DNA of 64,000 bases from Minisyncoccota bacterium (GCA_041649435.1 JBAZNB010000003.1:29041-93040); one strand, 5' to 3'; numbered from the stretch's first letter, positions 23,857-49,814 are shown. The notes: generated by a model from the letters alone, not told the origin. A program made the numbers and translations.

Positions 23857-25251
23857 TTAAGATCCATAAACTCTTTGTAAAATTAATTCTATTTCTTGGT
23901 GAATTTTTTCATCTTCGTCCCAAAGTTTTTCTACTAATTGGCAAGCGTGGATAACAGTTGTATGATCTTTTCCTCCAAATTTTCTTCCAATTTCTGAATA
24001 AGAAAGCCTTAACTCTTTTTTTAATAAAAACATTGCTATTTGCCTTGGTTTACTGAACTCTTTTTTTCGAGAAGAATAAAACATATTTCCGCTAGGGATA
24101 TCATAAAATTGAGTAATTGTTTCTATTATTTTTTTGGGATTAGTAGCTTGGCTTGGAGAAATAATAATTGTTTTTAAAAGTTTTTTTGCGTCTTCTATGG
24201 TTGGATTTTTATTGGTTGATTTTTTAAAAATAATCAAACGGTTTAAAGCGCTTTCCAACTCTCTTACGTTTTTTTGAATGTTATTGGCAATAAAATCAAC
24301 AACTTCTTTATTGAAAACTACCCCTTTTTCTTCTAATTTTTGTTTTAAAATAGCACTTCTAGTTTCAAAATCTGGAATACTAATATCAGCAATCATTCCT
24401 CCTTCAAAACGGGACTTTAATCTTTCTGTTATCGCAGGGATATTATTAGGATGCCGATCAGAAGAAAGAATAATTTGTTTGTTTTTTTGGTATAAAGAAT
24501 TAAAAGTATGGAAGAATTCTTCTTGAGTCTTATCTTTGCCGGCGATAAACTGAATATCATCAACAATTAAAACATCAAGCTCTCGTAACGTTTTTTTTAA
24601 TTCTTCCACATTATTATTTCGAATAGCGTTTACGATAATAGAAATTAATTTTTCAGCCGGAATATAGCGGACCATTTTTTCGGAACAGTTTTCTTTTATT
24701 TTATTTCCAATAGCTTGGATTAGGTGGGTTTTTCCCAACCCCACTCCCCCATAAATAAACAAGGGATTGTAATTTTTACCAGGGTCTTCTACTACTGCTG
24801 TAGCGGCAGCATAAGCAATTTCATTAAAAGGACCAACAATAAAATTTTCAAAAGTATATTTAGGATTAAGGTTCGTTTCTTTATTTGTTTCCAATTCTGA
24901 AAAACCAAGCTGTTCTGTGAAATCATTTTCTTTTTCTGATTGTTTTTTAGAAGAAGATTGTTTTTTATCTATTTTTACTGCGCAAACAGAATAGGAAATA
25001 GTTTTAATGCTTGGATCAAGGTCTCGTAAAATTTTTAAAATATCTTTATTGTATTTTTGTTCGAGCCATTCCTTGCTAAAAGAATTTGGAACAGAAACAA
25101 TTACATTATCTTTTTCAATTGCTGATATTTTTGTGTTGGCAAACCAAGTGGCAAAGTTAGCCGATGATATATTTAATTGAAGTTGGGCTAAAACAGCCTG
25201 CCATAATTGTTCTGCTTCCATAATTAATATAATGTTATATTTTATATTCAT
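23857..25251 (-). CDS. dnaA: chromosomal replication initiator DnaA
   Basis: AAA+ Walker A GGVGLGKTHL, DnaA box-binding domain IV (IGRKFGGKDHTTVIHA). Confidence 0.95.
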   Translation of the reverse strand: MNIKYNIILIMEAEQLWQAVLAQLQLNISSANFATWFANTKISAIEKDNVIVSVPNSFSKEWLEQKYNKDILKILRDLDPSIKTISYSVCAVKIDKKQSSSKKQSEKENDFTEQLGFSELETNKETNLNPKYTFENFIVGPFNEIAYAAATAVVEDPGKNYNPLFIYGGVGLGKTHLIQAIGNKIKENCSEKMVRYIPAEKLISIIVNAIRNNNVEELKKTLRELDVLIVDDIQFIAGKDKTQEEFFHTFNSLYQKNKQIILSSDRHPNNIPAITERLKSRFEGGMIADISIPDFETRSAILKQKLEEKGVVFNKEVVDFIANNIQKNVRELESALNRLIIFKKSTNKNPTIEDAKKLLKTIIISPSQATNPKKIIETITQFYDIPSGNMFYSSRKKEFSKPRQIAMFLLKKELRLSYSEIGRKFGGKDHTTVIHACQLVEKLWDEDEKIHQEIELILQRVYGS

Positions 25252-25477
25252 TATAATTTATTCAAGTCAATATAGCAAAAAAGCCTTATAAATAAAGGAA
25301 AAATAAACAGCTTGTTGAAAATCTGGGGATAAATTGTTAAGAAAATTACTTAGAAAAATTAAAACTAAAATTAAAAATAAAAGACTTTTTAGATAAAGTA
25401 TTAAGAATTTTCTATCTTGACCGAAGCTAATAATATTGCTATATTTTAAATACTTATTATTAATATTATTAATCAAT

Positions 25478-25612
25478 ATGAGTGTTACCTATAATCCCAA
25501 GAAAAAGAAAAGACAAAAAACGCACGGATTTTTAACAAGATCAAAAACTTCCGGGGGGAAAAAAGTCATCAAAAAAAGAAGAGCAAAGAAAAGAGCAAAA
25601 TTAACCGTTTAA
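25478..25612 (+). CDS. rpmH: 50S ribosomal protein L34
   Basis: Found by hand; too short for the ORF track. Translates to MSVTYNPKKKKRQKTHGFLTRSKTSGGKKVIKKRRAKKRAKLTV, classic L34, located upstream of rnpA. Confidence 0.85.
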   Translation: MSVTYNPKKKKRQKTHGFLTRSKTSGGKKVIKKRRAKKRAKLTV

Positions 25613-25644
25613 CGCACCCCGTGAAGACGGGATTTTTGTTATAG

Positions 25645-25977
25645 ATGTTGCCTATTAAACACCGCTTAAAAAAGAAAAAAGATTTTGAAATAATTTTTAA
25701 GCAAGGGAAAAATATAAAAAACAAGCTGTTTTTTTTAAAATTTTTATCAACGCAAAATAATTATTCTCGAATCGGCATTATTGTTAGTAAGAAAATAGCA
25801 AAGCAAGCAGTAAAGCGAAATAAAATAAAGAGGCAGTTAAGGGCGGCTACCAAAAGAGCAATTGAAACTTTTTCTTCTAAAGTAGATATTATTATTATCG
25901 CTCTCCCCCCTATCAAAAAGGCGCGTTATCAAGAAATTGAGCAAAGTATTTCCACAGCATTTAAAAATATAATTTAA
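25645..25977 (+). CDS. rnpA: ribonuclease P protein component
   Basis: 110 aa basic protein; RNR-like motif KIKRQLRAA; position in rpmH-rnpA-yidC synteny. Confidence 0.85.
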   Translation: MLPIKHRLKKKKDFEIIFKQGKNIKNKLFFLKFLSTQNNYSRIGIIVSKKIAKQAVKRNKIKRQLRAATKRAIETFSSKVDIIIIALPPIKKARYQEIEQSISTAFKNII

Positions 25978-25981
25978 AAAA

Positions 25982-26713
25982 ATGAATCCTATTACTATTA
26001 TTTTTGATAATCTTCTTTATCAGCCAATGCTGAATATTTTAATTTGGATTTATGGATTAATTGGCAATTTTGGTGTAGCGATTATTGTTTTAACTTTAGT
26101 GATAAAACTTATTCTGCATCCTTTGAATAAAAAATCTATTCAATCGCAAAAAGCAATGGCAGAAATTCAGCCAAAAATGCAAGAAATCCAGAATAAATAT
26201 AAAAACGACAAAGAAAAACAAGCTTTAGAGTTAATGAATCTTTACAAAAAAGAAAACTTTAATCCTTTTGCTGGAATATTTTTATTATTTTTACAAATCC
26301 CGATTTTAATAGCGCTTTTTTATGTGGTTAAAAACGGCATTGACGTTTCTCAAATTGGGAACTCTCTTTATTCATTTATAAAACTTCCAGAATTCATCTA
26401 CCCTTATTTATTAAATATTAATGGCTATGAAATTTTGGATTTAAGTAAGCCAAATATTTATCTTACTGCCCTAACTGCAGGCGCTCAGTATTTACAAATT
26501 AAAACAGCCACGCCACCAGCTCCAACAAAAACAAAAGAAGGAGAAAGCAACATGACAGAAGTTTCTAATATGATGCAAAAACAAATGGTATTTTTTATGC
26601 CCCTTCTGACCTTTTTTGTTCTTTTTAGCCTTCCCTCAGCAATGGGACTTTATTGGGTTATTTCAACCTTGATTTCTATTTTTGAACAAAAACAATTATT
26701 AAAAAAGAAATAA
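25982..26713 (+). CDS. yidC: membrane protein insertase YidC (short form)
   Basis: 243 aa; conserved hydrophilic-groove helix and position in conserved synteny. Confidence 0.85.
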   Translation: MNPITIIFDNLLYQPMLNILIWIYGLIGNFGVAIIVLTLVIKLILHPLNKKSIQSQKAMAEIQPKMQEIQNKYKNDKEKQALELMNLYKKENFNPFAGIFLLFLQIPILIALFYVVKNGIDVSQIGNSLYSFIKLPEFIYPYLLNINGYEILDLSKPNIYLTALTAGAQYLQIKTATPPAPTKTKEGESNMTEVSNMMQKQMVFFMPLLTFFVLFSLPSAMGLYWVISTLISIFEQKQLLKKK

Positions 26714-26714
26714 T

Positions 26715-27227
26715 ATGATTTTAGACCAATCCCGCTTTTCTTTTAAAGACTCAATCGGATCCGAAGAAGAAAAAATAATTGAAAATATAATTTTAGATTT
26801 TTTTGATGCTGCTGGATATGAAGCGGAAATTCAAAGCATTAATTTAAAACACGAAGGAGAAAATAATGTTTTGCGTGTAAATTTAAATACCGGAGATGCT
26901 CAAATGCTGATTGGAAAACAAGGCATGGTTTTGTCAGATATCCAATTATTGATTAGAAAAATATTAAAAAAAGCATTAAACCAAGAAATATTTTTAAATT
27001 TAGATATTGATAATTATAAAAAGAAAAAAGAAGAATATTTAAGAGATTTAGCCGAAGATATTGCCGACGAAGCTGTTTTTACAAAAAAAATAAAAGAAAT
27101 TCCAATGCCCTCTCCTTTTGATAGAAGGATTGTTCATTTAGAGCTATCAAAAAGAGATGATGTTGTAGTTGAAAGTGTTGGCGAAGGAGAAGAAAGGCAT
27201 ATTATCGTAAAACCAAAAACAGAATAG
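26715..27227 (+). CDS. Jag/KhpB-like RNA-binding protein (KH + R3H)
   Basis: C-terminal R3H motif RRIVHLEL...; follows yidC as in many bacteria. Confidence 0.75.
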   Translation: MILDQSRFSFKDSIGSEEEKIIENIILDFFDAAGYEAEIQSINLKHEGENNVLRVNLNTGDAQMLIGKQGMVLSDIQLLIRKILKKALNQEIFLNLDIDNYKKKKEEYLRDLAEDIADEAVFTKKIKEIPMPSPFDRRIVHLELSKRDDVVVESVGEGEERHIIVKPKTE

Positions 27228-27240: not shown

Positions 27241-27266
27241 AATCGCCCTTTCTGGGGCGGTTTTTT
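27241..27266. terminator. bidirectional rho-independent terminator (jag / virB4-like)
   Basis: cgccc-tttct-ggggcg hairpin followed by tttttt. Confidence 0.6.
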
Positions 27267-27267
27267 G

Positions 27268-29070
27268 TTAAGACAATCCATTAGTTTGACGAGACAAACG
27301 ATCTTTTGCTTCTTTTATTTTTAAAACTTCTTCTGGATTAGTGGTAATAATTTGGTCTTCGGTATATGAAGCTCGAATAGCAATAGCAACATGTTTTTGT
27401 CCTGCGAAAAAAATACCCTCCCCCACCGGGGTTTCTAAAAGAAGATATTTTTCTTGATCAGTTAAATTAAATGTTTTTTGGACTAAATCAATACTAGCGG
27501 GACTTTGTTTTAATAATAATTGAATTGAGGAATTTGTAATAATCGGCTTGCCATAAGCAGAACTCATAAAATCAGAAACATCTTGAGTGATTGTTGTTAC
27601 CCCTAGCCAATATTTTCGGGAACGTTTACACATTCCAAAAAGAAAAGAGGCGCCGTCTTCTTCTTTCATCATCCACCAAGCCTCATCAACAACCAAGATT
27701 CTTTTTTTGAAAGTGGTACGAACAGCATTCCAAATATAACGCATAACAATAAACATAGCGATTGGCCTTAATTCATCTTCCATGTCTCGAATCCCAAAAA
27801 CAACCAAATGTTTATCCATGTCTACATTTGAGTAAGCATTAAAAAAAGACGAATAAGTACCACGAGTGAATTTTCTTAATCTTTCTGATAAAGAATCAGC
27901 ATTTTCCATTGTTTCTAAAACCGATTCCAAGTCTGATAAAAGAGGGACGTTTTCTTTCCATTTTTTAGGGTCAGAGCTAATAGTAATGTCTTTAGCAGCA
28001 TAAGTAGCCATAATCGCTTGATCCATAATTGCGTCTTCTTCTGGAGTCATTCCACCGAGCATTATTCTCATTAATCCAACCAAGTTAATAACATTGCCCC
28101 GAAGTACGTCTTCTGGAGTTTCCCCTTCCATCATATCAGGCAAATCAAAAGGATTGATATGGCTATCAGAACTTAAAGATATTCGGAAAAAAGATCCTCC
28201 AACAGCTTCAGCTAAGGGCTTGTACTCATTTTCTGGATCAATGATAATACATTCCGTGCCCATCATCATTGATCTTAAAATTTCCAATTTTACAGCATAA
28301 GATTTTCCAGATCCAGCTTTTGCAAAAATAACCATATTTGGATTTTCCATACTAAAGCGATCAAATAAAACCAAAGAGCTATTATGTTTATTAATTCCAA
28401 AAAGAATTCCTTCATTACTACTTAAATCAAAAGAAATAAAAGGAAACAAACTTGATAAAGGAGAGGTATTAAGAGTGTTGTGGATATTTAAAAGATCTTG
28501 GCCATAAGGAAAACAAGAAATAAGACCTTCTTTTTGTTGGAAAAGCGCAGGCTTTATATAAATAAGACGAGACTCGAGCATTGATCTTAGATTTGTTTCT
28601 ACAAATTCTAATTGTTTTTTATCGTCTACATATACAGTGATATAAAGCCCAAATTTAAACATTTTTTCTTGAGCTGTTTGTAAACTGTCGCGCAAATCTT
28701 CCAGGTCTTGAAAGGCAGTTTCCAAGGCAGGATCTCTAACCAATCCTTTTTCTTGCCTTTCAATAATTTCTGATTGAACCTCGGTGACACTTTTCCTTAG
28801 TTGTTTTAAAATTTCTCCAGTTTCAATAGGGTGGAAATAAAAAGATAAATCAAAAGGGACATCCATATTAATTACCGGAGCAATCCAGCCCATATTTAGA
28901 TAACGCGGATAAGAAAAAACAAAGTATGTTTTACTATATTTTTCTTCAAGCTGAACATAATTTTGAGCAACCTCAATTGAAGACGGAGCAATAATGTCTT
29001 TAAAATCAGTTACTTCGGTTTCAAATAATTTTTTCTTTTTTTCTTCTTTTTTTGCGCCAAATAGGGCCAT
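27268..29070 (-). CDS. VirB4/TrbE-like T4SS ATPase, C-terminal 600 aa part
   Basis: Walker A AKAGSGKS with downstream NPFD; Walker B VVDEAWWM; overall VirB4 (AAA_10) arrangement. It is in-frame with the upstream 214 aa ORF. Confidence 0.7.
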   Translation of the reverse strand: MALFGAKKEEKKKKLFETEVTDFKDIIAPSSIEVAQNYVQLEEKYSKTYFVFSYPRYLNMGWIAPVINMDVPFDLSFYFHPIETGEILKQLRKSVTEVQSEIIERQEKGLVRDPALETAFQDLEDLRDSLQTAQEKMFKFGLYITVYVDDKKQLEFVETNLRSMLESRLIYIKPALFQQKEGLISCFPYGQDLLNIHNTLNTSPLSSLFPFISFDLSSNEGILFGINKHNSSLVLFDRFSMENPNMVIFAKAGSGKSYAVKLEILRSMMMGTECIIIDPENEYKPLAEAVGGSFFRISLSSDSHINPFDLPDMMEGETPEDVLRGNVINLVGLMRIMLGGMTPEEDAIMDQAIMATYAAKDITISSDPKKWKENVPLLSDLESVLETMENADSLSERLRKFTRGTYSSFFNAYSNVDMDKHLVVFGIRDMEDELRPIAMFIVMRYIWNAVRTTFKKRILVVDEAWWMMKEEDGASFLFGMCKRSRKYWLGVTTITQDVSDFMSSAYGKPIITNSSIQLLLKQSPASIDLVQKTFNLTDQEKYLLLETPVGEGIFFAGQKHVAIAIRASYTEDQIITTNPEEVLKIKEAKDRLSRQTNGLS

Positions 29071-29079
29071 AAATTTTTT

Positions 29080-29724
29080 TTAAGTAATTATTTCTGGGGG
29101 CAGTTCTGGGTAGTATCCCATTTCCGCTTGTTTTGGATGATGTAATGACCAAAGCAATTCCAATACCTCTTCTGATCCCATTGCTGCTGATTTTAACCCG
29201 CAACGTCGAAGCCCCAAAGCAACATATTCAATTCTTTGCAAGAGCTGATATTTTCCTTTTTGGAAAAAATCTTCAGTGAGAGCTGATTGAGACACTGGTT
29301 TTCCTCCCAGATTTTGAGCAGCTGAAGAAGTAGAAAGCTCTAAAAGAGGATAATAAGGGATAACCACATAAAAGCTTTTATTCATAATAGACCCATCTGC
29401 TACCAGATCTTCAATAAATTTTCGATAATCTGCAGTTTGAATTTTTAATAATTCGTTTTTTTGTTTTGACTCTAATTCTTTTATTTTATCAATATATCCA
29501 GTAATGTTTACTTTTCGCGAACTAACTATCATTTGGCAGGAAAAATCCAAAGAATTAAGAAAATTTTGAAAATTAAAAATAATCGCCCCCTGTTCTTCTT
29601 CAGACTTTAAAGCAAAATTAATAGAAGAAACAATGAGCATCCCCCTCATTGATTGGTCATTCATTATCATAATCCCCTCGCGGATTTGTTTAATTGGAAT
29701 AAATTGTTGCGTGGGAGTAGCCAT
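29080..29724 (-). CDS. VirB4/TrbE-like T4SS ATPase, N-terminal 214 aa part
   Basis: Same reading frame as 27268-29070, separated only by a TAA (plus strand tta at 29080-29082) and three codons. Content resembles the VirB4 N-domain (IMIMNDQSMRGMLIVSSINFALKSEEEQ). Confidence 0.5.
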   Translation of the reverse strand: MATPTQQFIPIKQIREGIMIMNDQSMRGMLIVSSINFALKSEEEQGAIIFNFQNFLNSLDFSCQMIVSSRKVNITGYIDKIKELESKQKNELLKIQTADYRKFIEDLVADGSIMNKSFYVVIPYYPLLELSTSSAAQNLGGKPVSQSALTEDFFQKGKYQLLQRIEYVALGLRRCGLKSAAMGSEEVLELLWSLHHPKQAEMGYYPELPPEIIT

Positions 29725-29729: not shown

Positions 29730-30152
29730 TTATTTTTCAAAATCTATTTTTTTAATTAAGTTTTCTATTTTTCCGGTTTCTTTTATTTTTAAAGGAGATG
29801 GTTTTTCTTGAAGTTTTGCTTCGGCCAATCTTTTTTCTTTTGGCGAAGAAAGAAATACAGGAGATTGTTTTCTTTTCCAAAGGAATAATTTATTATTTAA
29901 TGTGTAGGTAGTAAAATTTTTTCCCACCTTAGCTACTCCCAATCCTTCTATTTTTATAAAAGCAAGGGCAAAGGCAATTCCAAAAAGTAAAACAGTGATT
30001 ATAACATATAAAGTTAAATGGTTTTTTGACATTAAAAAATATAAAAAAAAAGAAATTCCAAAAGCTGTACCAACAAACATAGTTTGGCTTAGAGTAAGCG
30101 GCCCTAATATTTTCGGGTCATGTTCGATAAATTGTGGCACTCGAAAATCCAT
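29730..30152 (-). CDS. VirB3-like small membrane protein
   Basis: 140 aa; DPKILGPLTLSQTMFVGTAFGISFFLYFL matches the VirB3 DP-lf-G-tRP motif followed by TM helices. Lies immediately upstream of virB4-like, the canonical order. Confidence 0.5.
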   Translation of the reverse strand: MDFRVPQFIEHDPKILGPLTLSQTMFVGTAFGISFFLYFLMSKNHLTLYVIITVLLFGIAFALAFIKIEGLGVAKVGKNFTTYTLNNKLFLWKRKQSPVFLSSPKEKRLAEAKLQEKPSPLKIKETGKIENLIKKIDFEK

Positions 30153-30201: not shown

Positions 30202-31086
30202 TTAAAGCGGAGCTTCGCGATAAGGATCAGAATAATCATTTTTAATATTGAAAGTATTCTTTGATTCAGATATTGGAGTTGGTTTAGGGATGTTTGGCTC
30301 AGAGTCTGGTTTTTTAAAAGACGAATCAGAACTTGAAAAATCTGAAGAACTTTCTTTATCAATTTTTTCTCGATAAGAAGACTGGTTATTTAAAATATTT
30401 TTATTTTTAATTTCCGTGTTTAGAGTCGGCTCTGTTAATTCTGTAAAATCAATACTAGAAGTGCTAGGCTTTTTCACTTCTTCTAAATTTTTATCGCTAA
30501 GGTCAATCCGAGACTCTTCTTTTTTGGTAAAGCTTTTAACTGAAACAGAAGTTTTTGGTTTTTTTTCTTTAATTAAAGACAAAAAAGATTTTAAAGATTT
30601 TATGATGGGAAATTTGATTTTTCCGCTCCCTCCTTGGAGCTGAACATCTTCTTCTTTGTTATTCAGGCTTTGAGCTTCTGATTCTAAAAGAGAAGATTTT
30701 TTATCTTCAGGGATTTCTTCGGGAATAAATTTATCTAAATCAGGAATTGTTTTTTTGCCTGTTTTTTGTTCTTCTAGTCGTGATAAGGCCAAGCGCAAAT
30801 GTTTGAAAATGCTGAAATTTATTTCTTGGGTTATTTTATTGGCTAAAAATTCATTAATATTTAATTCTAATTCCAAAGTAACTCCAAAATCTTTGAGAGA
30901 CAAAAGACCCATTAAAACTCGACCAGTATATTTAGCAACAATAGAAGTCTGATCTTCGTCCAATCCTAAACGGCTACAAATATTATAAATAATTTGGTTG
31001 TTTTTTTCATCAAAAACAGCTTCTTTTAATTCTTCGGGCAGGGTTTTATAGGTTTCCCAAAAAAATTCTTTAGTGTACTCTTCCAT
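30202..31086 (-). CDS. hypothetical protein (ordered N-domain + low-complexity Ser/Lys/Glu-rich tail)
   Basis: 294 aa with no TM helix and no recognisable motif. Co-directional with the virB3/virB4-like genes. Confidence 0.35.
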   Translation of the reverse strand: MEEYTKEFFWETYKTLPEELKEAVFDEKNNQIIYNICSRLGLDEDQTSIVAKYTGRVLMGLLSLKDFGVTLELELNINEFLANKITQEINFSIFKHLRLALSRLEEQKTGKKTIPDLDKFIPEEIPEDKKSSLLESEAQSLNNKEEDVQLQGGSGKIKFPIIKSLKSFLSLIKEKKPKTSVSVKSFTKKEESRIDLSDKNLEEVKKPSTSSIDFTELTEPTLNTEIKNKNILNNQSSYREKIDKESSSDFSSSDSSFKKPDSEPNIPKPTPISESKNTFNIKNDYSDPYREAPL

Positions 31087-31273: not shown

Positions 31274-32725
31274 GTGATGAAAATGGTTTTCTGGAAAAAA
31301 GAAAAAAAAGAAGAAGTAAAACGAACAGCTGAAGAACAACTACAAAGCTATCAGCAAAAAAGAAAACAAGCCCGCAATAAGGGATTGGTAATTATGATTT
31401 TTGCTGTAATTTTTGGAATTGCTTTAATCGCAATGTCTACTTCTAATGTTTTTTCTCTCATTGGAGCAACAGCCGCAGCGATTTTGATTGTAGTATTTTT
31501 TGTTTTTTTAGTGCTTTATTTTATCTGGGCAAAACACGACATCTTAACTTGCAATGTCAATGAAGGATATTGCAAAGTTATTGTAGTGGGAGATAAGTTC
31601 AAAAGAATTGTTTTTAACCACAAAGGCAAAGCAATGAATAAAGATTGGGAAATCGTGGAAGAAAATAGTCCTAATGCATATTACAAAGATAAAAGTACTT
31701 TAGGTATGCATACAATTTGGCCTTTATTTTTCGGCAAGGTTTATACCCACATCTTAGCCTGGCGGAAATATGATTTTTTGAAAAAAGCTCCAATTGACAG
31801 GAGAGAGTTGTTAACTCAAACAAGCTTGATGGATTATCCATATTATATCGAAACCCTTCAGGCTGAAGACAAAGACCGGGCTCCGCTTGATCTATTTACA
31901 GTAGTAACAATGCGGATAGTTAATCCGTATAAAGCTTTGTTTAAAATTACTACTGAGTGGATTGAGGTTGCTACTCCAAAAATACAGGGCACTTATGTGG
32001 CTTACATCAAACTGCACTCCTTTCAGGAAATGCTGGAAAATGTGAAGTCGCTTGGCGACAGCATTTTTGAAGAAATGAAACAGTCGGGGGGTATTTTTGA
32101 AGAGCTTCGCGATATTTATGGAGTGGAAATAATCTCTATAGACGTAATAGAGATTATTGGTGGCGACAAAGACATGCAAGCAGCGATTAAAGCAAATGCT
32201 GTCGCCAAGCTTCGAAAAGATGCCACTATAACTGATGCCGAAGCAGCGGCCAAGAAAAAAGTAATAGATTCTGAGGCCGAGATGCAAGCTCGAGCTAATA
32301 AAACAGCGGGTCTCTTTATGACTTTAATTTCAGGAAGAACTGGTCTTTCTGAAGATAAAATAAAAGAGTGCATGACAGAGCACCCCCAAGAATTCCAAAA
32401 AACATATGGACCGGAAATTGAAGCTTGTAACAAGCTGGTTGAACAAATGGTGTCAGCTGAAGCTAATGGTCTGGTTCAAATTTTGACTAGTGGAAGTACT
32501 GGTTCATCAGGCGGAGGAGTGAACAATGACCTTATTGCTACGGTTGTTGGGATGCTCAAGGCAATGAACACTCCGGCTGTTTCTGGTAACTCTCTAAATA
32601 AAAGCGGAGGGAAATCACAAGCACAATCAGAACCAACAAAACAAAACCCTTCAGAAGAAAAGAAACTTACGAAGGAAGAAAAAAGGAAAAAATTTTTAAA
32701 AGATAATGGACTTGAAGAATACTAA
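31274..32725 (+). CDS. SPFH/band-7 (stomatin/flotillin-like) membrane protein
   Basis: N-terminal TM helices followed by an SPFH-like core (...YGVEIISIDVIEIIGGDKDMQAAIKANAVAKLRKDATITDAEAAAKKKVIDSEAEMQA) and a Gly/Ser-rich tail. Confidence 0.6.
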   Translation: MMKMVFWKKEKKEEVKRTAEEQLQSYQQKRKQARNKGLVIMIFAVIFGIALIAMSTSNVFSLIGATAAAILIVVFFVFLVLYFIWAKHDILTCNVNEGYCKVIVVGDKFKRIVFNHKGKAMNKDWEIVEENSPNAYYKDKSTLGMHTIWPLFFGKVYTHILAWRKYDFLKKAPIDRRELLTQTSLMDYPYYIETLQAEDKDRAPLDLFTVVTMRIVNPYKALFKITTEWIEVATPKIQGTYVAYIKLHSFQEMLENVKSLGDSIFEEMKQSGGIFEELRDIYGVEIISIDVIEIIGGDKDMQAAIKANAVAKLRKDATITDAEAAAKKKVIDSEAEMQARANKTAGLFMTLISGRTGLSEDKIKECMTEHPQEFQKTYGPEIEACNKLVEQMVSAEANGLVQILTSGSTGSSGGGVNNDLIATVVGMLKAMNTPAVSGNSLNKSGGKSQAQSEPTKQNPSEEKKLTKEEKRKKFLKDNGLEEY

Positions 32726-35482: not shown

Positions 35483-38400
35483 GTGAAGAAAAAAATGAAA
35501 AAAAATAAAAAAATTGGATTAATTATTTTAGGATTATTTTTTTTAATTCCGTTAACTGTTTTTGGCGCCCTAGAAAATACCTATCCTTCTCTTCCAGGAT
35601 TTTCTCCAGAAGAAGGAACAGGGCTGTTGGTTTATTTTTTTAATTTTTTGGTTTATTCCGGAGGAATAGTGGCTGTCTCAGTAATTATTTATCAAGGAAT
35701 AACCATTTTTTTATCCAAAGGAAATGTAGCAAAAATAAATGAAGCTAAAGATAGAATTAAGGCGGTATTTTTAGGGTTAACAATTCTTTTAGGCGCTTAT
35801 TTTATTTTAATGTTTATTAATCCTGATTTAACAAAAATTAATCTTCCAATCTTAGAATACGGCGAAAAAATTTTTTCGAATAATAAAGAATTCGAATCAA
35901 AAGATGTTGTTTATAAAGAAATTGCCTTGGGAGCAATTATCGAAGCAATTTTGATGCCGTCTTCGACAGCTGAAAATCAATATTTTAATTATTCCCAACT
36001 TAACAAAAAAACAGAAGAAAAATGTTATTTATATGACGAAGAAGGAAACACAATTGATCGCAATAATGATGGCGAAATTAACAACCAAGATATGGTTGAG
36101 GGAATGGACTTGTCTGTTTGTATGGATAATTTACTAAGAGCAACAATTGCAAAAATTAGCTGGTTTAACGGCAATCAATCAATTTGTAATGGTGCGATTG
36201 CTAATACAGAAGGCCCGATTAATGCTTTGAAAAAATTTATTAGGACAGGATGTACTTGTGAGCCTTGCACTAAATGGCCAGATAAAACATTCCCAGAAAC
36301 AAACTGGCCGCAAGGGTGTAAAACAACAGATACAAAAGTTACTTGCTATGACAATGACGGATCAAGCTATGAAATAGATGGAACTTATTGTGACTGGAAG
36401 TGTAAGTGCTGTGGAGAGCCTCGGGGAAGTGATATTGGCTGCCAAGATCAACCTTCTAGTCCATTTTATTTGGAAAATGTTTATATCAACCACGATCCTT
36501 GTACAAATCGTCAACAGATTGATTGTGCTCGGCAAGAAATGAATTTTAGAATTTACGGCAAAGGATTGGATTTGGGATTAAAATGCGCTGGGATTTATGA
36601 ATACAGTCCAGACATTGCCCCTTTTATCGATGAAGAAACTAATACTTTAAAAATAATTGAAAAAACAGCACCAGATGGAAAAATATATAAAGCTCAATTC
36701 TTAACTTTTACCGGCGCAGTTGAAAGCAGTGTTCTCAATAGAATCGAAAGCTTTAAGTCGTATTTCAATAATCGGTTAGCAGAACTACAAATTGCTAAAA
36801 ATTTTATTAATGCCGATAAAACAAAAAATATTTTATCTTTAGCTGAATTTCAAAATCTCCAAGAAACTAGTTCTGAAAATGTGGTTAAAGAACCTTTGAT
36901 TACCGGCTACGATCCCTCAACTTACCATTCTTTTGTTTGTAAAAAATATAATATTAATAATGTTTGCGTTCAAGGAGAGTTGGTAAAATTAAAAGAATCA
37001 GGATACGCTTTTTTGCCTGGACAAAATTATGAATCTTTTCCTACTCAAGGAGAGGGCCAAGTGCCAGCAACTTCCCCAAGCTCGGAAATTGACAATACTA
37101 AATATACAAGCGATAAATATGCTTTTGGCTGGCCATTTACAGCAAAAAGAATTTGGAATAATAAATTAGGAAAAACAGCTCTAAAAAGCGATTTATATAA
37201 TACTGGAGACCCTGATACCTTATATATTTTATCTTATCCAGGAACAACTGATCCAAACAAATATCCAGCTTCTGCTCGGGCCGGAATTATTGATAATTCC
37301 CCTACCAATAATCAATGCACCTTAAAAGATTCGGAAAAAACAGATAAAGAACAAATTGAAAAAGGAACAGCAGTTTCTAATATTCCGATTGGACAATTAA
37401 CTGACAACATGACTGAATATGTAGAACAAATAAATTTAATTTTAGACAACACAGTTGATGAAGTAAATAATGTGATTGATTCTGCTGATCAGCTAGCTAA
37501 TTATTTACCAGAACATTGCAGCTGTTCTTCTGGCTGTGGAAATACCAATATTTGCGAACCTCAACTTGGACCAACCTGCGCCGAGCCATTTCAAGTTTGC
37601 GGAGCGCCTCCTTGCACGGATTGCGAAACATCGGAACAAGTTGTTTGTGAATTTGGATGTCTTGATTGCGGAGCAACTCAAGCAATAGATTCAGCAAGAT
37701 ATTATTGCGTAAGAGATGGATCTCCTACGGGAGAATGGTCAGCTGCTAGAAATTATGATTTTGATGCTGCCGGGGTATTAAATCCATTTAATTATATGCC
37801 TTCGCAAGAAGGATGTTATGTTTCTAATCCGGCGAATAATTATACATCATTTTATTTATTAAAAAATCCTTTTCTTATAATTGGTGGAGAGCATTGCGGA
37901 TGCGAACAAGGATTATCATATCTAATAAGAGATGCTCTTGATGGTGCTCATGAATGCAATACTTTGGTTTATGGCAGTTCACTAGAAGGTTCTTTTGGAG
38001 CAGTTTGCACCACAAATGATGTTCAAAAAATATTAAATAATTATGAATATCGGTATGACAAGCAATTATTAGAATCAGGATATATTTGTACTTGTGCTCA
38101 TAATATTGGTTCAACCCAATGCTATAATCCAATAAATAATGAACCATTAAATTGCACACTAAATCAATTAAACGATGAAGAGTTTACAACAGATAGCGAT
38201 TGTTATCAATTATTAGAAAAATCAATTGCTGGTGATTGTATAAAAAATGCCAAAACAGTCACAAATTTAGGCGGCTTTTGGGATATTGCTTCTTGTAATG
38301 GAAAAACTATTAGAATAACCCCAAAATATACTTCTAATATTATCTCTTGCGAAGAGGGTTATACAAACTTAACCGAAGAAGAAAGAATTTTAATCGAAGA

Positions 38401-39250
38401 TAATTATAGTCAAGAAATTACTTGGCTTAATGAGCTTGGCAAAGGACAAGACGAATTGACTTATAGCGGTTTAGATTGTTGTGGTCTTTATGTAGGGAAT
38501 ACTAATGAACTTCAAGCAAATATTGATAATTTAATGTCTAATATTCCGAGCGGATTTAATACCGAATGTTCGATTGATTTTGAAACAGGACAATCATCAA
38601 TTAAAATTAGTCGAAAAGTTGATTTGAGCGGACCAATTATTCGGCCAGAAAAAATAAAAGATAATCAAGCTTATTATGTTTGTCCATATAATGAAATCAA
38701 AACCCAGCAATCCAGAATTTATAAAAGAGTGGGAGATCCTTCTTGGGTTGGATTAGAAGATTTAACCACAGATCAAGCATGCTTGGATGATGTTCCTGGA
38801 TTTTTACAAAGGATAGAGCAATGGCGAGAAAGATTGTGGAATTATCAAAATGCAATAGATTTATCCCCTATTGATGTTAATCGATTTACTTTATTAGATT
38901 TATTAAATGTTACTCGTTCACGTTTTCATCAGTGTATTCAGGGATATGGCCAGCAATATAAGCCGGCTGCGACCACGGTTTACTTATTTACTTGCGAAGA
39001 AGGAATTGATGCTCAAAACTTAGGGGCTTATCGTATCTATCCAGAATTTCCATTAACCAATTCATTTTTATCAGAAACAAAATCAGAATCTCAATGGGGA
39101 TGCTATCCTTTGAATAGTTCAGTTCTCAACGCTCAAGAAAGAAAAAATTGTTTTGAAAATAAAAATAAAAAAGGAGTTGACGGATGTCAATCAATTTTAC
39201 AAGAATATAATTTAATAAATGATTTTTATTGCTGTTCTGGATCTCAATAA
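35483..39250 (+). CDS. giant secreted Cys-rich protein with N-terminal VirB2/TrbC-like pilin module (paralog 1 of 4)
   Basis: 1255 aa; signal peptide ...VFGALENTYP, then two hydrophobic helices joined by loop SKGNVAKINEAKDRIKA. The remainder is hydrophilic with many Cys clusters (CTCEPC, CKCCGEP, CSCSSGCGNTNICEP, CTDCETSEQVVCEFGCLDCG). Confidence 0.6.
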   Translation: MKKKMKKNKKIGLIILGLFFLIPLTVFGALENTYPSLPGFSPEEGTGLLVYFFNFLVYSGGIVAVSVIIYQGITIFLSKGNVAKINEAKDRIKAVFLGLTILLGAYFILMFINPDLTKINLPILEYGEKIFSNNKEFESKDVVYKEIALGAIIEAILMPSSTAENQYFNYSQLNKKTEEKCYLYDEEGNTIDRNNDGEINNQDMVEGMDLSVCMDNLLRATIAKISWFNGNQSICNGAIANTEGPINALKKFIRTGCTCEPCTKWPDKTFPETNWPQGCKTTDTKVTCYDNDGSSYEIDGTYCDWKCKCCGEPRGSDIGCQDQPSSPFYLENVYINHDPCTNRQQIDCARQEMNFRIYGKGLDLGLKCAGIYEYSPDIAPFIDEETNTLKIIEKTAPDGKIYKAQFLTFTGAVESSVLNRIESFKSYFNNRLAELQIAKNFINADKTKNILSLAEFQNLQETSSENVVKEPLITGYDPSTYHSFVCKKYNINNVCVQGELVKLKESGYAFLPGQNYESFPTQGEGQVPATSPSSEIDNTKYTSDKYAFGWPFTAKRIWNNKLGKTALKSDLYNTGDPDTLYILSYPGTTDPNKYPASARAGIIDNSPTNNQCTLKDSEKTDKEQIEKGTAVSNIPIGQLTDNMTEYVEQINLILDNTVDEVNNVIDSADQLANYLPEHCSCSSGCGNTNICEPQLGPTCAEPFQVCGAPPCTDCETSEQVVCEFGCLDCGATQAIDSARYYCVRDGSPTGEWSAARNYDFDAAGVLNPFNYMPSQEGCYVSNPANNYTSFYLLKNPFLIIGGEHCGCEQGLSYLIRDALDGAHECNTLVYGSSLEGSFGAVCTTNDVQKILNNYEYRYDKQLLESGYICTCAHNIGSTQCYNPINNEPLNCTLNQLNDEEFTTDSDCYQLLEKSIAGDCIKNAKTVTNLGGFWDIASCNGKTIRITPKYTSNIISCEEGYTNLTEEERILIEDNYSQEITWLNELGKGQDELTYSGLDCCGLYVGNTNELQANIDNLMSNIPSGFNTECSIDFETGQSSIKISRKVDLSGPIIRPEKIKDNQAYYVCPYNEIKTQQSRIYKRVGDPSWVGLEDLTTDQACLDDVPGFLQRIEQWRERLWNYQNAIDLSPIDVNRFTLLDLLNVTRSRFHQCIQGYGQQYKPAATTVYLFTCEEGIDAQNLGAYRIYPEFPLTNSFLSETKSESQWGCYPLNSSVLNAQERKNCFENKNKKGVDGCQSILQEYNLINDFYCCSGSQ

Positions 39251-39257
39251 TTAAATT

Positions 39258-40604
39258 ATGAAAAAAACAATTATCAAAACAATATTATTAGTTTGTCTTT
39301 TTTGGCCAAAATCAGTTTTGGGAGCTTTGGAAAATATTTATCCCCCTATTCCGATTTCTTTGAATAAAACCTTAACAATTACTGCCAGCAGCAATGCGAC
39401 AGAATATCTTTTATATTTATTTGCTTTTTTTTCTGGCCTGGGCACAATTATTGCTTTAGGAGCCATGATTTGGGCTGGGGTAGAAATGATTCTTTCACAT
39501 GGCAATCCTCAAAAGTTTTCTGAGGCTAAATCCAAGGCTCAAAACGCTTTGATTGGACTATTAATTTTATTTGGAGCTTATCTTATTTTAAATGTTGTGA
39601 ATTCAGAAATAAAAAATGTAAAAGTAGAACAAATTGATTGCAATCAGGAGGATATTTGTGTTGCTCGTTATTTTTTGGGAAGTGAAAATCAAAAAATAAG
39701 CTATTCTTCGTCTCTTCCTGATAGTCCTAATTTAGATTTAAAATCAAATGAGGTAATGGTAATTAAAAGATTTAAAGGATTAAAAGAGATTTGGGGATTT
39801 CCTGAGCTTGATTTTCAAGGAACTCCGTTTTTAATTCAAGGATATCGAAACGACGATGAATCAGATTTGAATAATGATTTGCCAGCAGAAATAACCATTG
39901 ATAGTTCTGTTAAATCCGTTAGAGCCTATATTAAACAACCAGGAATATATTTATATGATGGATTAAATTATCAAGCTAGCAAGATCCCTCCCCTATTTTT
40001 AAGAAATAGCACTGTTGATTTGGGAGAATTTAAAAATAAAATAAAATCAATTCAAATTTTTAATGAACCAAATTTTAAATATTATGCTGTGGTTTTTGCC
40101 ATAGAAAAATATAATGATAGTTATGATTATAATTTTTATCCCCAATCTCCCAGCTCAGATTGCAGCGATGTGATTGAAGAAAGCGATTCGTCTTTTTCTG
40201 GGCCGAGCGGATCCATTTTAATTTTTAAGAGCTCGGATTCTTTTTTAGCAAAAAATCATAATCCAGGCATAACTTTTTATAATACTTTAAATTGCTATAT
40301 CCCACTGGGCTCGGTATCTGGTCAATTAAGCGAGTGTTCGGCCCCGTTTCAAGGATTATTTAAACTACAAACAATTCCAATTTCAAATTGCTCTGGAATA
40401 TCTGCTGGAGATGTTTTGTCTGTTAGACTCTCAGAAGAATCGGGAGTTTTGATGATTGCAGAATCATCTGGAAAAAGATATTGTAATTTTTTTGACATTG
40501 ATAGTGTAAATATTGTTAGTGGTAATTGTATCAGCGATAATATATTCTTTCGAAAAGCAGAAATTAATAATTTTATAATTATCCCTTATGAAAAAAAATT
40601 ATAA
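39258..40604 (+). CDS. secreted pilin-module fusion protein (paralog 2)
   Basis: 448 aa; ...SVLGALENIYP signal end, helix-loop-helix AGVEMILSHGNPQKFSEAKSKAQNALIGLLILFGAYLIL. C-terminal domain shares LKEIWGF / GIYLYD / FYNTLNC motifs with paralogs 3 and 4. Confidence 0.6.
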   Translation: MKKTIIKTILLVCLFWPKSVLGALENIYPPIPISLNKTLTITASSNATEYLLYLFAFFSGLGTIIALGAMIWAGVEMILSHGNPQKFSEAKSKAQNALIGLLILFGAYLILNVVNSEIKNVKVEQIDCNQEDICVARYFLGSENQKISYSSSLPDSPNLDLKSNEVMVIKRFKGLKEIWGFPELDFQGTPFLIQGYRNDDESDLNNDLPAEITIDSSVKSVRAYIKQPGIYLYDGLNYQASKIPPLFLRNSTVDLGEFKNKIKSIQIFNEPNFKYYAVVFAIEKYNDSYDYNFYPQSPSSDCSDVIEESDSSFSGPSGSILIFKSSDSFLAKNHNPGITFYNTLNCYIPLGSVSGQLSECSAPFQGLFKLQTIPISNCSGISAGDVLSVRLSEESGVLMIAESSGKRYCNFFDIDSVNIVSGNCISDNIFFRKAEINNFIIIPYEKKL

Positions 40605-40616
40605 TAAAAATATAAT

Positions 40617-41996
40617 ATGAAAAAATTATCAATAATTATTTTTACAGTACTTTTGTTTACGGGTTTTTTAATTCAACCCTGTTTTGCTTTAGAGATTCAA
40701 TATCCGGAAATAACCACCATAGATGGCCAAAAAATAACAATTACGGATGAATCTTCTCCAGACCAGTACGTAATTTATGTATTTTATATTTTAATAAGCC
40801 TGGGGGCAGTGATTGCTTTTATTGTTTTAGTAATGGCTGGATTTAATTTTTTAAACAGCGGAGGGTTGCCGACAAAAATAAGCTCTGCAAGAAATCAAGC
40901 TCTAGGCGCTTTTGTTGGACTTGTTGTTTTGTTCTCTTGCCATTTAATTCTAAATACAATTAATAAATCTTTAGTTAATACTCCTGTTAAAGCAATAGAC
41001 TGCAAAGATGTTCCAATTTGCGTAGCGTTTACTAGGATAGCAAACGAAAAATCGAAAACAACAGTGGAAATGGCTATTCAGACAGCTAATGATAATTTAT
41101 TGTTACAAGAAGGAGAAAGTATTGTTATTAAAAAGTATGATAATTTAAAAGAAATTTGGGGGTTTCTTGATTCAGGATTTAGAGGCACGCCAATTAAAAT
41201 TTTTCCTGATCCCAATAATCCAGAGGCAGAGGCAAAAGACTTGGCTCTTAGTCCTACAGCTGATGGCACAAATTTAAAATCTTATAAAATAATCGAAAAA
41301 AGAGAAGGAATTTATCTGTATGATAGACCCAATTTTGAAGTTGGTGATGGATCTATTGCCCCGTTTTTTTTAGCTGGCAATGTAAGCGATTTTTCTAAAA
41401 CCAATCCTGATTTTTTTCGTAAAACCCAATCAATTCAAGTAGTTGCTCCACGGTTTACTCCTGCCGATCCTGAAAATCAAGTTGGTCATTTGGGAACTAC
41501 ACCAGGAGCAGTATTTTTTTCTGAACCAGAATTTAGAGGAACATGTTTGGAGTTTTTTCCAACTGCGGGAACAGAAACTGGATTGAATGATTTAAATCAA
41601 GAAGGGCAATTAGGAAAACCATTAATCCCTTTTGGTTATAATGTAAGCTCGGCAATTACTTTTAAATATACTACAACTGGGAGTGCGGCAGTTAATGGGG
41701 TTGTTACTTTTTATAATACACTGAATTGTCAAAAAAATGAGGCTATTCCTGAACAAAAATCTTGTGAGCAAGAAATTTATGAAAATCCGTGGGGAATATA
41801 TTTAAACTCAGCTTGTGGGCAAGATTTTAAAATAAAATCATTTAAAATTAATGGTCCAGTAGGAGTGGTTTTAGTTGAAGGAAATAAATGCCAATATTTT
41901 GATAAAAAAGATTTTTGTTCAGGTAATTGTGTTTGTTCAATTTTAGAAACCAGTGTTAGTAATCCTGACATTTTCGAACTCTTGCCAATAGATTAA
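40617..41996 (+). CDS. secreted pilin-module fusion protein (paralog 3)
   Basis: 459 aa; CFALEIQYP, loop NSGGLPTKISSARNQA; motifs LKEIWGF, GIYLYD, FYNTLNC. Confidence 0.6.
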   Translation: MKKLSIIIFTVLLFTGFLIQPCFALEIQYPEITTIDGQKITITDESSPDQYVIYVFYILISLGAVIAFIVLVMAGFNFLNSGGLPTKISSARNQALGAFVGLVVLFSCHLILNTINKSLVNTPVKAIDCKDVPICVAFTRIANEKSKTTVEMAIQTANDNLLLQEGESIVIKKYDNLKEIWGFLDSGFRGTPIKIFPDPNNPEAEAKDLALSPTADGTNLKSYKIIEKREGIYLYDRPNFEVGDGSIAPFFLAGNVSDFSKTNPDFFRKTQSIQVVAPRFTPADPENQVGHLGTTPGAVFFSEPEFRGTCLEFFPTAGTETGLNDLNQEGQLGKPLIPFGYNVSSAITFKYTTTGSAAVNGVVTFYNTLNCQKNEAIPEQKSCEQEIYENPWGIYLNSACGQDFKIKSFKINGPVGVVLVEGNKCQYFDKKDFCSGNCVCSILETSVSNPDIFELLPID

Positions 41997-42000
41997 TTTT

Positions 42001-43311
42001 ATGAAAAAAAACATTTTATTATTTTTATTTATTTCAATTCTTTTTTGCGCTAATAGCGTTTTAGCTTTGGAAATTTCCTATCCCACAATCGGTGGAGTAT
42101 CTTTGCCTCCTAATCCTACGTTTACAAATTATTTTATTTATTTTTTTAATTTTGCTTTATTCGTTGGAATGGTGGCGGCTAGTTTTGTTTTGATTTTTGG
42201 AGCAATATCATATTTTCTTTCTAAAGGAGAAATTGGGAAAATAGAAAAAGCAAAAAGAGAAATCATAAGGTCTTTTATCGGGCTTGTTGTTTTATTTGGA
42301 TCAGTAATGATATTAAATACGATTAATTCTGGAATTAATAAAAATACTTTAGAAAGTTTGAACCCTGAAAAATATTCTGGAGGAATAATTTTACAATATG
42401 AAAACGGCCGAGAACAAAACATTGCTGGCGACATGACCGAAACGCCTTATAATGTAGGCGGAATTAAATGGCTTTCCGCAGAATCGGAATTACCGAGAAT
42501 ATTTGTTTTTCCGCAAAAAGATTTTTCTGGCAACCCCCAAGAAATTATGAACGGAAACAGTGTTTTTATTGCTAAAGGAAGTTCAATTTCTTTTGATTGG
42601 CAACGTCCCGGAGTTTATCTTTATAATGCGCTTGATTATCAGTTAGAAAACAGAAGGTCGCCATTATATTTATTAAATAGCCAGCCAGCCTTAGGAAATA
42701 ATGGATTTGATAAAAAAACCGCTTCGATAAAAATAGTTCAGCCTTCGGAAAAAGGATTTGTAAAATACGGAGCCGTGCTTTTTTCCGGGGATAATTATAC
42801 TGGAAAATGTTCTTGGGTAATGAATGATTTGCCAAATATTAATGAAGTTAGTCAGAGCAATCCTGAAGAAAATAGTGTTCGAATTAACGAAAGCGATGAG
42901 TTTTCTGGCATTGGCCAAGTATCTTCAATTTATGTTTTAAAAATTGATCCCGCCACTCCCCTTTCCGAGGTCGTGCTTTATAATGGTACAAATTGCGAAT
43001 CAAAAGATTCTATTTGGAATGATGCCACCAAATCATTTCTTGAGCCGAATTATTGCGTTGTTCCAGAATATCAAAAAGAATTTAAATTTGAAATTTGCGA
43101 AACAATGCCTCAAAACGGAGATACTATTTTATCAGCGAAAATAAGCGAAGGTGCTGTTTTATTATTAAAAGACAAAGAAGGAAATTGCCAACTATTCAGG
43201 AAGCAAGGACTAAGCAATTGTATTACTTCTATTACTTATGGGAAGGTTTATGATATAGAAAATAGAGAAAAGACAAAACCTTTATATTTTACGATTTTAC
43301 CGGGTAAATAA
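42001..43311 (+). CDS. secreted pilin-module fusion protein (paralog 4)
   Basis: 436 aa; SVLALEISYP, loop SKGEIGKIEKAKREI; motifs GVYLYN, LYNGTNC. Confidence 0.6.
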   Translation: MKKNILLFLFISILFCANSVLALEISYPTIGGVSLPPNPTFTNYFIYFFNFALFVGMVAASFVLIFGAISYFLSKGEIGKIEKAKREIIRSFIGLVVLFGSVMILNTINSGINKNTLESLNPEKYSGGIILQYENGREQNIAGDMTETPYNVGGIKWLSAESELPRIFVFPQKDFSGNPQEIMNGNSVFIAKGSSISFDWQRPGVYLYNALDYQLENRRSPLYLLNSQPALGNNGFDKKTASIKIVQPSEKGFVKYGAVLFSGDNYTGKCSWVMNDLPNINEVSQSNPEENSVRINESDEFSGIGQVSSIYVLKIDPATPLSEVVLYNGTNCESKDSIWNDATKSFLEPNYCVVPEYQKEFKFEICETMPQNGDTILSAKISEGAVLLLKDKEGNCQLFRKQGLSNCITSITYGKVYDIENREKTKPLYFTILPGK

Positions 43312-45407: not shown

Positions 45408-46007
45408 TTTTTCCGATACATTAAAGCTTCGGAAATATGGGAAAAAAGAATTTTTTCTGAAGAATCCAAATCAGCAATAGTTCGAGCTACTTTTAAAACT
45501 CGATGATAGGCTCTGGGAGAAAGCTTACCAGAATCAACAGCTTGTTTTAAGAGACTTTTTGAATCATTATCAAAACTGCAAAAAGTTTTTATTTCCGGAA
45601 TTTGCATTTCTGAATTTTTTAATATTTTTAAAGATTTAAATCTATCGGCTTGAATTTTTCGAGCAGTTTTTATTTTTTCTTTTAATTCTTTTTCTAAAGA
45701 TTTATTTTCTTCAGCATTTAATTTGTCAAAATTTATCCGAGGAACATTAATAAACATATCAATTCTGTCCATTAAGGGGCCTGATAATTTTCGGCGATAC
45801 ATTTGAATTTGAGAGGCAGAACAAGTGCAAGCTTTTTCTGGATCTCCATAATAGCCGCAAGGGCAAGGATTGGCCGTGGCAATTAAAATAAATTGTGCCG
45901 GAAAGCTTATTTTTGTTTTTGCTCTTAAAATATTTATTTGGCCTTCTTCTAATGGCTGTCTTAAAGATTCTAAAACATCTCGGTGGAATTCCGGCAATTC
46001 ATCTAAA
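45404..46007 (-). pseudogene. comM: comM/yifB (Mg-chelatase-like AAA+ ATPase) 3' fragment, severed by element insertion
   Basis: The frame reads ...LDELPEFHRDVLESLRQPLEEGQINILRA...ATANPCPCGYYG, the conserved ComM/YifB C-terminal half. An in-frame stop lies immediately upstream at 46019-46021, inside element DNA. Confidence 0.8.
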
Positions 46008-47717: not shown

Positions 47718-47798
47718 AATTTTAGTTTAATTTTAATAATAATTTGTGGATGATGTCCCTACTACACATATGCCAATTAAATCGATATAAGTAAAGCG

Positions 47799-48503
47799 TC
47801 ATTTGCAGAATTTGTCGTATTTGCCGGGAGTGACGGGAATATAGTTTGAAAATTTTGTTTGATTATTGTTTCCTTTTTGGGATTCTCGGTGATTTTTAAT
47901 AAAAATGCGAAGTGCGGCGTTGTAGTTCTCATAAGTTTTCCCGGTTGTTTTGCAGTAATTTATTAAATCGTCAATTTTTCTTAAAATAAATTGTTCGGAC
48001 ACTTTGTACTTGCTTACTAATTCGGCCATATCGTCTGCCGGTATTTTTTCAAGGTAATTAACAGACGACCTCTCGACTTTTTCTTGTAATTTATATATAC
48101 CCTTGATCTTACTTGGGTTGAGTTTAATTTTAGTTGAGTTAGTAGCTATCTCCTGCCCCGTGGTTTGGGCATCGTTTGCCCCATATGGGTCATCGGCTGA
48201 CCTATTACTTTTTTTATTTTTTATGATTAAAATTTGGTACAAGTTTGAATAGTTTTTCCCGTCACAACTTTTTCTTATTGTCTTTTTTACAAACCCCATT
48301 TCTTCAAGACGTGCTATCCGTTTCTTGACGGTGTTTTTACAAACACGCGATAAGCGTGCGAGCGTATTAATGCTTGGGTAACATTGCCCGTTTTTATCTG
48401 AGAAGTCACAAATCCAAAAGAAAATACTTTGACTGATTGCATCTGTTTCTTTCAGTTTTTCTTTGTTTGGTATAACGAGGAAAGAGCCCTTTTCGTATTT
48501 CAT
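47799..48503 (-). CDS. HTH (winged-helix, replication-initiator/regulator-like) protein
   Basis: 234 aa; CYPSINTLARLSRVCKNTVKKRIARLEEMGFV is a typical phage/plasmid replication-protein wHTH. Confidence 0.4.
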   Translation of the reverse strand: MKYEKGSFLVIPNKEKLKETDAISQSIFFWICDFSDKNGQCYPSINTLARLSRVCKNTVKKRIARLEEMGFVKKTIRKSCDGKNYSNLYQILIIKNKKSNRSADDPYGANDAQTTGQEIATNSTKIKLNPSKIKGIYKLQEKVERSSVNYLEKIPADDMAELVSKYKVSEQFILRKIDDLINYCKTTGKTYENYNAALRIFIKNHRESQKGNNNQTKFSNYIPVTPGKYDKFCK

Positions 48504-48691
48504 AACTCTTTTGGGTCCGTTGTTACGGCACTTGGGTTTTTCTCGACCTTTTGTATTTCTGCTGATGGTTGATCGTCTTGTTCGTTAAGAACACTGTCAA
48601 AAAATGCAAACAATACTTTGTATGATTCTTTTTCGTCGACAGTTTGTGCCGAGAAATTTACTGAAACTGGTTGTTTGCATTTAGTGTCCAT
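48500..48691 (-). CDS. hypothetical protein
   Basis: 63 aa ORF inside the element; coding status uncertain. Confidence 0.2.
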   Translation of the reverse strand: MDTKCKQPVSVNFSAQTVDEKESYKVLFAFFDSVLNEQDDQPSAEIQKVEKNPSAVTTDPKEL

Positions 48692-48693
48692 AT

Positions 48694-48966
48694 TTATTCG
48701 CTGTAAATGCGGTTTTTCAACATTTTTATGTTGTCAAAAAACGATCTCGCTCCGACCTTTGTTTTTCCGGTCCAGTAACCGTCGGCGACCTTTTCTATGT
48801 CTTTTGCACGATTAAAAATAAACTGGACTTTTCTTGGATTTGTTTTATCCAGTCCAATTAATTCAAAACCGGCCGTAACAAGTAATGCGGCGGCTCCTAA
48901 ATCAAATGTGTACAGACGGTTTCCGTCCCCTTTGTCGATGTTTTGTTGTTCTTGATTGATTTTCAT
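48694..48966 (-). CDS. hypothetical protein
   Basis: 90 aa with no recognisable motif. Confidence 0.3.
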   Translation of the reverse strand: MKINQEQQNIDKGDGNRLYTFDLGAAALLVTAGFELIGLDKTNPRKVQFIFNRAKDIEKVADGYWTGKTKVGARSFFDNIKMLKNRIYSE

Positions 48967-49100
48967 AATTATTTTGATTAATTTTTTGCGCCCGACTTTG
49001 CACGTAAAACAAAAAAGACTACTTATGTGTGTAGTCTATGCTTTGAGCCTGTGGACGGCCGTGACTTTTTTCGGACGGTTTCGGGCGAGCTAAAGTCTTA

Positions 49101-49718: not shown

Positions 49719-49814
49719 TGTAATTGTAATTTTGTAATTAAATTATACCTCAAAAAACAAAAAACCGCTATTAAAATAACGGTTTTTCAGCGTTCGTATT
49801 TATGTTACTTTCTG

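Follow-up and report, generated by a model that had tools for sequence, protein, structure and literature searches.

A TrsD-like protein and a short VirB4-type ATPase encoded in one frame: a probable two-gene arrangement at a Patescibacteria T4SS locus

TrsD is a remote homologue of the VirB4 N-terminus and the most abundant T4SS component in Patescibacteria, with 2,272 homologues, 1,664 of which are associated with virB4 (Quinonero-Coronel et al., Microb Genom 2025, PMC12102498). In Southlakia epibionticum, the sole Patescibacteria species tested genetically, TrsD is essential (PMC12102498), and the species depends on its T4SS to grow as an epibiont (Wang et al., Cell 2023, PMC10633639). Patescibacteria T4SS clusters commonly have PrgI/VirB3 as an adjacent gene and are often situated near dnaA, rnpA and rpmH (PMC12102498). 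TrsD is not mentioned in the main text of Guglielmini et al. 2014 (PMC4027160). A comparable arrangement is the TrsD-TrsE (TraD-TraE) pair of the staphylococcal plasmids pGO1 and pSK41 (MPF_FATA), where a VirB4-N-related protein of ~200 aa is encoded just upstream of the ATPase. Full-length VirB4 proteins such as TrwK of R388 (PDB 7O41, 8RTB), by comparison, are single polypeptides of ~750-820 aa.

The locus described here is located on the minus strand of a 64,000-nucleotide stretch of DNA from a Minisyncoccota bacterium (GCA_041649435.1, JBAZNB010000003.1:29041-93040), which we refer to as the window. It contains two ORFs in one frame, ORF1 (214 aa, 29724-29083) and ORF2 (600 aa, 29070-27271), with 9 nt between the stop codon of the first and the start codon of the second. 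Very probably, both are real genes and belong to a Patescibacteria (Paceibacteria/Parcubacteria-type) chromosomal T4SS locus, ORF1 being a detached VirB4 N-terminal module and the shared frame a coincidence. The gene arrangement is ordinary and already described for Patescibacteria T4SS. As in the published Patescibacteria loci (PMC12102498), a stand-alone homologue of the VirB4 N-terminus occurs directly upstream of virB4, PrgI/VirB3 is adjacent, dnaA, rnpA and yidC are found beside the cluster, and candidate pilin-like genes with weak matches lie nearby; no substantive difference was seen, except that the genes here happen to share a frame across a 9-nt spacer. The central features are as follows.

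29733..30152, minus strand: small membrane protein of the PrgI family (VirB3-like), 140 aa (PF12666 PrgI, 31.6 bits, cutoff 27)
29083..29724, minus strand: ORF1, stand-alone TrsD-like or 'TraC-like' protein, 214 aa (NCBIfam, Pfam annotation, predicted fold, homologues)
29080..29082, minus strand: TAA stop codon of ORF1, the 'interrupting' stop (from the sequence; the same in six independent assemblies)
29071..29079, minus strand: spacer from the ORF1 stop to the ORF2 ATG, AAAAAATTT, 9 nt, A/T only, without a Shine-Dalgarno site
27271..29070, minus strand: ORF2, VirB4-type ATPase without the first ~180 residues of the family profile, 600 aa (NF045971, Pfam, PDB)
28314-28300, minus strand: Walker A motif of ORF2, GSGKS, residues 253-257, intact
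27693-27676, minus strand: Walker B motif of ORF2, VVDEAW, residues 460-465, intact

An earlier, sequence-only reading of the window had drawn attention to this junction, and its ORF coordinates, minus-strand orientation, shared frame and combined length of ~817 aa proved correct when re-derived from the sequence. The codons following the ORF1 TAA are AAA AAA TTT, after which come the ORF2 ATG (29070-29068) and, at 27270-27268 on the minus strand, the ORF2 stop; part of the TAA and of the spacer constitute a run of eight A residues (29081-29074). Translated through the stop, the junction reads ...PPEIIT*KKFMALFGAKK..., and the whole comprises 819 codons with both stops counted. At the C-terminus of ORF1, the conserved motif YYPxLPPE stops 3 residues short of the stop codon. 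TAA is a normal stop in the window, as the same reading had noted: the 61 long ORFs end in TAA (50), TGA (10) or TAG (1). An SD-like core within 22 nt upstream was found in only 4 of these 61 ORFs, and the leaders are A/T-rich. Genes in the window typically start with an ATG behind an A/T-rich leader that lacks a Shine-Dalgarno site, and the missing site before ORF2 is not informative.

Several lines of evidence relate ORF1 to the VirB4 N-terminus. Among NCBIfam profiles, it matched VirB4_plasma at positions 104-233 (E 5e-11), the CD1110 family at positions 1-117 of 752 (E 7e-6) and TIGR00929 at positions 7-123. It also matched TrsD/TraD (NF041427) at positions 21-142 of 201 (E 7e-4), at 19.5 bits against a curated cutoff of 200, and so falls outside this equivalog-level family. 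PF26593 (TraC-like) is assigned to the identical protein in precomputed Pfam annotation, while our own Pfam scan of ORF1 returned no hit. A sequence search of ORF1 against the PDB yielded only noise, and the link to VirB4 therefore required the predicted fold. With the AlphaFold2 model of ORF1 (pLDDT 73), the best 13 Foldseek matches in the PDB were all TrwK/VirB4 chains of the R388 system (probability 0.92-0.99), the fold match to TrwK being modest (TM 0.36-0.47, E 2e-3 to 5e-2). By its profile matches and its predicted fold, ORF1 is the counterpart of about 175 residues at the N-terminus of full-length VirB4. Homologues of ORF1 are numerous (4,483 matches). Each of the best 120 (56-100% identity) comes from a Paceibacterota/Parcubacteria MAG and stands alone as a protein of 190-271 aa, in line with a Patescibacteria T4SS locus. 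The identical 214-aa protein is present on 17 contigs, and the family shows 64% mean column identity with many invariant residues.

ORF2 is a VirB4-type ATPase by several measures. It scored 374.3 bits against the CD1110 family profile NF045971 (cutoff 325), over profile positions 181-734 of 752, and gave Pfam matches to P-loop_TraG, AAA_10 and DUF87. Like VirB4/TrwK, it has Walker A and Walker B motifs, and its C-terminal domain aligns with PDB 4AG5, the VirB4 C-terminal domain (residues 218-576, E 2e-41; TrwK, E 2e-5). A complete N-terminal domain is not encoded by ORF2, since profile positions 1-180 are missing and are supplied by ORF1. The two ORFs thus cover complementary parts of VirB4 profiles, collinear with a single full-length VirB4 such as TrwK or the CD1110-family VirB4 of Gram-positive ICEs; unlike in those proteins, the first ~175-180 residues are here the product of a separate gene. 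Because ORF2 retains ~217 residues before the region aligned with 4AG5, the split sits inside the N-terminal domain and not at the border of the N-terminal and ATPase domains. Purifying selection on both ORF1 and ORF2 appears evident from sequence comparison.

The most direct evidence on the junction comes from orthologous loci. Fifty-one related loci were fetched, and a junction table was built from the 45 that contained both genes. At all 45, the ORF1 homologue ends in a stop codon (TAA in 40, TGA in 3, TAG in 2) and the ATPase begins with an ATG of its own. The spacers range from a 4-nt overlap (ATGA, -4) to 485 nt, with a median of ~4 nt; the long ones include L007 (143 nt) and L024 (485 nt, with another ORF between both genes). 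Adjacent genes on the same strand are expected to share a frame one time in three. Relative frames 0, 1 and 2 occurred at 13, 16 and 16 loci, respectively (chi-square p = 0.82), and the shared frame is therefore no more than chance would give. The relatives at 93% and 80% identity are in frame with 6-nt spacers, all three frame relations occur among relatives at 73-79% ORF1 identity, and a second in-frame stop is present in 2 of the 13 in-frame loci. The position of the stop and the downstream ATG are kept in relatives down to ~35% ORF1 identity. When ORF1 and ORF2 were joined into one query, the best 120 matches were all proteins of 588-607 aa that covered 72-74% of the query and none was fused, indicating that no close relative is fused. 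Finally, six independent assemblies from JGI, ENA and Logan samples show one and the same junction, which rules out an assembly artefact, and since three of the six differ by a nearby synonymous SNP (CCC/CCT), distinct populations keep the stop.

As judged from the homologues recovered, the split state is overwhelmingly the rule and fused lineages are rare. In an exhaustive search for ORF1 homologues, the best 150 cluster representatives (clustered at 50% identity) comprised 148 proteins shorter than 450 aa and two fused ones, namely P0357 (797 aa) and P0351 (898 aa). The former fusion was found on three Candidatus Colwellbacteria MAG contigs (P0357, P0391 and P0392); residues 5-213 of P0357 resemble ORF1 (40% identity) and residues 227-796 resemble residues 20-590 of ORF2 (57% identity). 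P0351, from Logan contigs, has a Pro/Ala-rich linker of ~100 residues between both parts. The existence of fused relatives suggests that both parts can work as a single chain, that the split or fused state is labile, and that a covalently joined product would probably be functional here.

Two further long ORFs, L044 (Gracilibacteria, 802 aa) and L051 (Tissierellaceae, 790 aa), were considered as fused TrsD-VirB4 proteins and rejected. No match was obtained by hhalign between the ORF1 family and the N-terminal parts of these stop-to-stop ORFs, and the first 220 residues of each gave no TrsD- or VirB4-N-like signal with NCBIfam; they are consequently not counted as fused. The ORF1-family HMM had no match in L038, L044 or L051. 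In L044 (3338-5743, Gracilibacteria, 802 aa) and L038 (2594-4663, Peribacteria, 690 aa), VirB4 homologues occur in longer stop-to-stop ORFs whose N-terminal extensions have no detectable TrsD/VirB4-N similarity, and there is no ORF1 homologue upstream. TrsD of Gracilibacteria has been reported in a published note to be unlinked to virB4, and L044 agrees with this.

The sequence-only reading had presented the locus as a VirB4 'interrupted' by a stop codon, had listed a genuine two-polypeptide split beside three other options, and had proposed a comparison with orthologous loci. Now that the comparison has been run, the 45 loci all have two separate genes, each with its own ATG; the interruption itself is not supported, and the two-polypeptide split was the correct option. 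A nonsense mutation that recently turned a once full-length virB4 into a pseudogene could account for two in-frame ORFs separated by a single stop with a combined length typical of VirB4, and the fused relatives of 797 and 898 aa show that uninterrupted forms exist. However, an uninterrupted ORF is absent from the orthologues at all 45 loci, the best 120 matches of each half are stand-alone, and the stop and downstream ATG persist to ~35% ORF1 identity in all three frame relations; with purifying selection evident on both ORFs as well, we regard such a mutation as exceedingly improbable. An error of sequencing or assembly would be most readily imagined in the A8 homopolymer, since the stop lies within it and such runs are prone to length errors. 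Yet the expected result of a length error is a frameshift, not an in-frame TAA, and the agreement of six independent assemblies, including SNP-distinguished populations, along with the presence of the 214-aa protein on 17 contigs, makes a false stop hardly credible.

Readthrough of the TAA, programmed or otherwise put to biological use, would yield some fused 817-aa VirB4 beside the two separate proteins. It draws on the in-frame pair with its single stop and 9-nt spacer, on the 93%- and 80%-identical relatives, likewise in frame with 6-nt spacers, and on the natural fusions, which show that the joined form is tolerated. Nevertheless, the genes are in frame at only 13 of 45 loci, two of these with a second in-frame stop, and relatives at 73-79% identity use other frames; the ATG of ORF2 is never lost, and both overlapping pairs and long spacers occur. 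Furthermore, TAA is the main stop of this genome, and in bacteria it is generally read through less often than the other stops, which counts against readthrough. The frame distribution of 13/16/16 and the invariable ATG thus leave the programmed-readthrough option of the earlier reading unsupported, and we deem it very unlikely. A narrower version, in which occasional TAA readthrough in this strain and its closest relatives (in frame, 6-9 nt apart) would produce a little covalently fused TrsD-VirB4, is given only a slim chance. If it were true, the product would resemble the 797-aa Colwellbacteria fusion and might help to nucleate or regulate the building of the ATPase complex.

If the locus consists of two genes, as we favor, the gene run would comprise the 294-aa protein, the PrgI/VirB3-like protein, the TrsD-like ORF1 and the VirB4 ATPase ORF2, the last contributing the RecA-like ATPase domain together with what remains of the N-terminal domain. 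Such a split is probably ancient and kept in place by selection. Both genes would be co-transcribed with prgI; ORF1 translation would terminate at the TAA and ORF2 would be translated from its own conserved ATG. Initiation of ORF2 would probably occur on the same mRNA, either by coupling and re-initiation or by SD-independent initiation at the A/T-rich leader. The two products presumably assemble non-covalently, completing the N-terminal domain, and presumably dock on PrgI/VirB3 at the membrane, by analogy with the VirB3-VirB4 contacts at the membrane in R388 and with the fused relatives.

The surroundings of the two genes resemble a chromosomal T4SS cluster. The stop of the PrgI gene is 5 nt upstream of ORF1, and the same neighbor is found in other assemblies. 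Further features of the locus are listed below.

30205..31086, minus strand: 294-aa protein, apparent first gene of the minus-strand run (position conserved in loci L052-L057)
27244..27259, minus strand: terminator-like GC-rich hairpin with a T-rich tail, 9 nt past the ORF2 stop (consensus scan)
23860-25251, minus strand: dnaA, ~2 kb from the VirB4 locus
within 23860-27224, together with dnaA, plus strand: rnpA, yidC and jag/khpB, an origin-region set that abuts the end of the T4SS operon
35483-43311, plus strand: four large ORFs of 1255, 448, 459 and 436 aa, the first two with weak pilin-like N-terminal matches

No significant family match was obtained for the 294-aa protein. The hairpin may mark the end of the operon, and the operon boundaries are tentative because scans for promoters and terminators gave no excess of matches over shuffled sequence. 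Since dnaA, rnpA, yidC and jag/khpB directly adjoin, the locus is chromosomal and lies beside the replication origin region. Among the large plus-strand ORFs, the 1255-aa ORF gave a weak match to PF18895 (T4SS_pilin, E 3e-3) and the 448-aa ORF matched NF045849 (Mbov_0395 pilin-like, E 9e-7, below cutoff); this run possibly represents the cluster of pilin genes described in published Patescibacteria T4SS loci. A gene for an SPFH/Band 7 membrane protein (31274-32725, plus strand) is situated on the opposite strand between the T4SS-associated minus-strand genes. Elsewhere in the window, a full-length match to the LOOT RNA motif (RF03000) was found at 50148-50266 on the minus strand (88 bits against a gathering score of 46), just upstream of ORF 49815-50162, which it overlaps by 15 nt. 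The region 46001-50000 has a G+C content of 0.38-0.40 vs. ~0.31 and a strongly negative AT skew, and no rRNA was found there by Rfam.

Beyond Patescibacteria, the locus shares with the TrsD-TrsE pair of pGO1/pSK41 the position of the small protein just upstream of the ATPase. Unlike TrsD of those plasmids, compared here via its profile, ORF1 is a weak match to NF041427, and its locus is chromosomal with no relaxase seen nearby. A closer parallel in gene order is provided by the Bacillota plasmids Geobacillus pGspE55-1, Clostridium perfringens pJFP838A and Bacillus thuringiensis BTB_502p, which have PrgI, an ORF1-like protein and a DUF87 ATPase in succession. Their small proteins are 24.5-26% identical to ORF1 over ~90% of its length, and their ATPase shares 28% identity with ORF2. 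The split occurs at the same position of the CD1110 profile, ~175-183, with the Geobacillus small protein covering positions 2-174 and the ATPase starting from 183. Unlike ORF1, the Bacillota small proteins are 312-328 aa long and plasmid-borne, and the gene pairs either share 14 nt or are separated by 130 nt. At the loci examined (L058, L059 and L060), all on large plasmids of Bacillus, Geobacillus and Clostridium that were typed non-mobilizable, the ORF1-like protein is annotated only as 'hypothetical protein'; a gene for a sigma-70 family sigma factor is nearby in two of the three, as is clpX in two of the three.

VirB4 is therefore split at the same fold position in Patescibacteria and on Bacillota plasmids, and the rare fused lineages support the view of TrsD-like proteins as a detachable N-terminal module of VirB4. 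When Patescibacteria or Bacillota are annotated, a short VirB4 that follows a small in-frame ORF should not be taken for a pseudogene or a recoding event.
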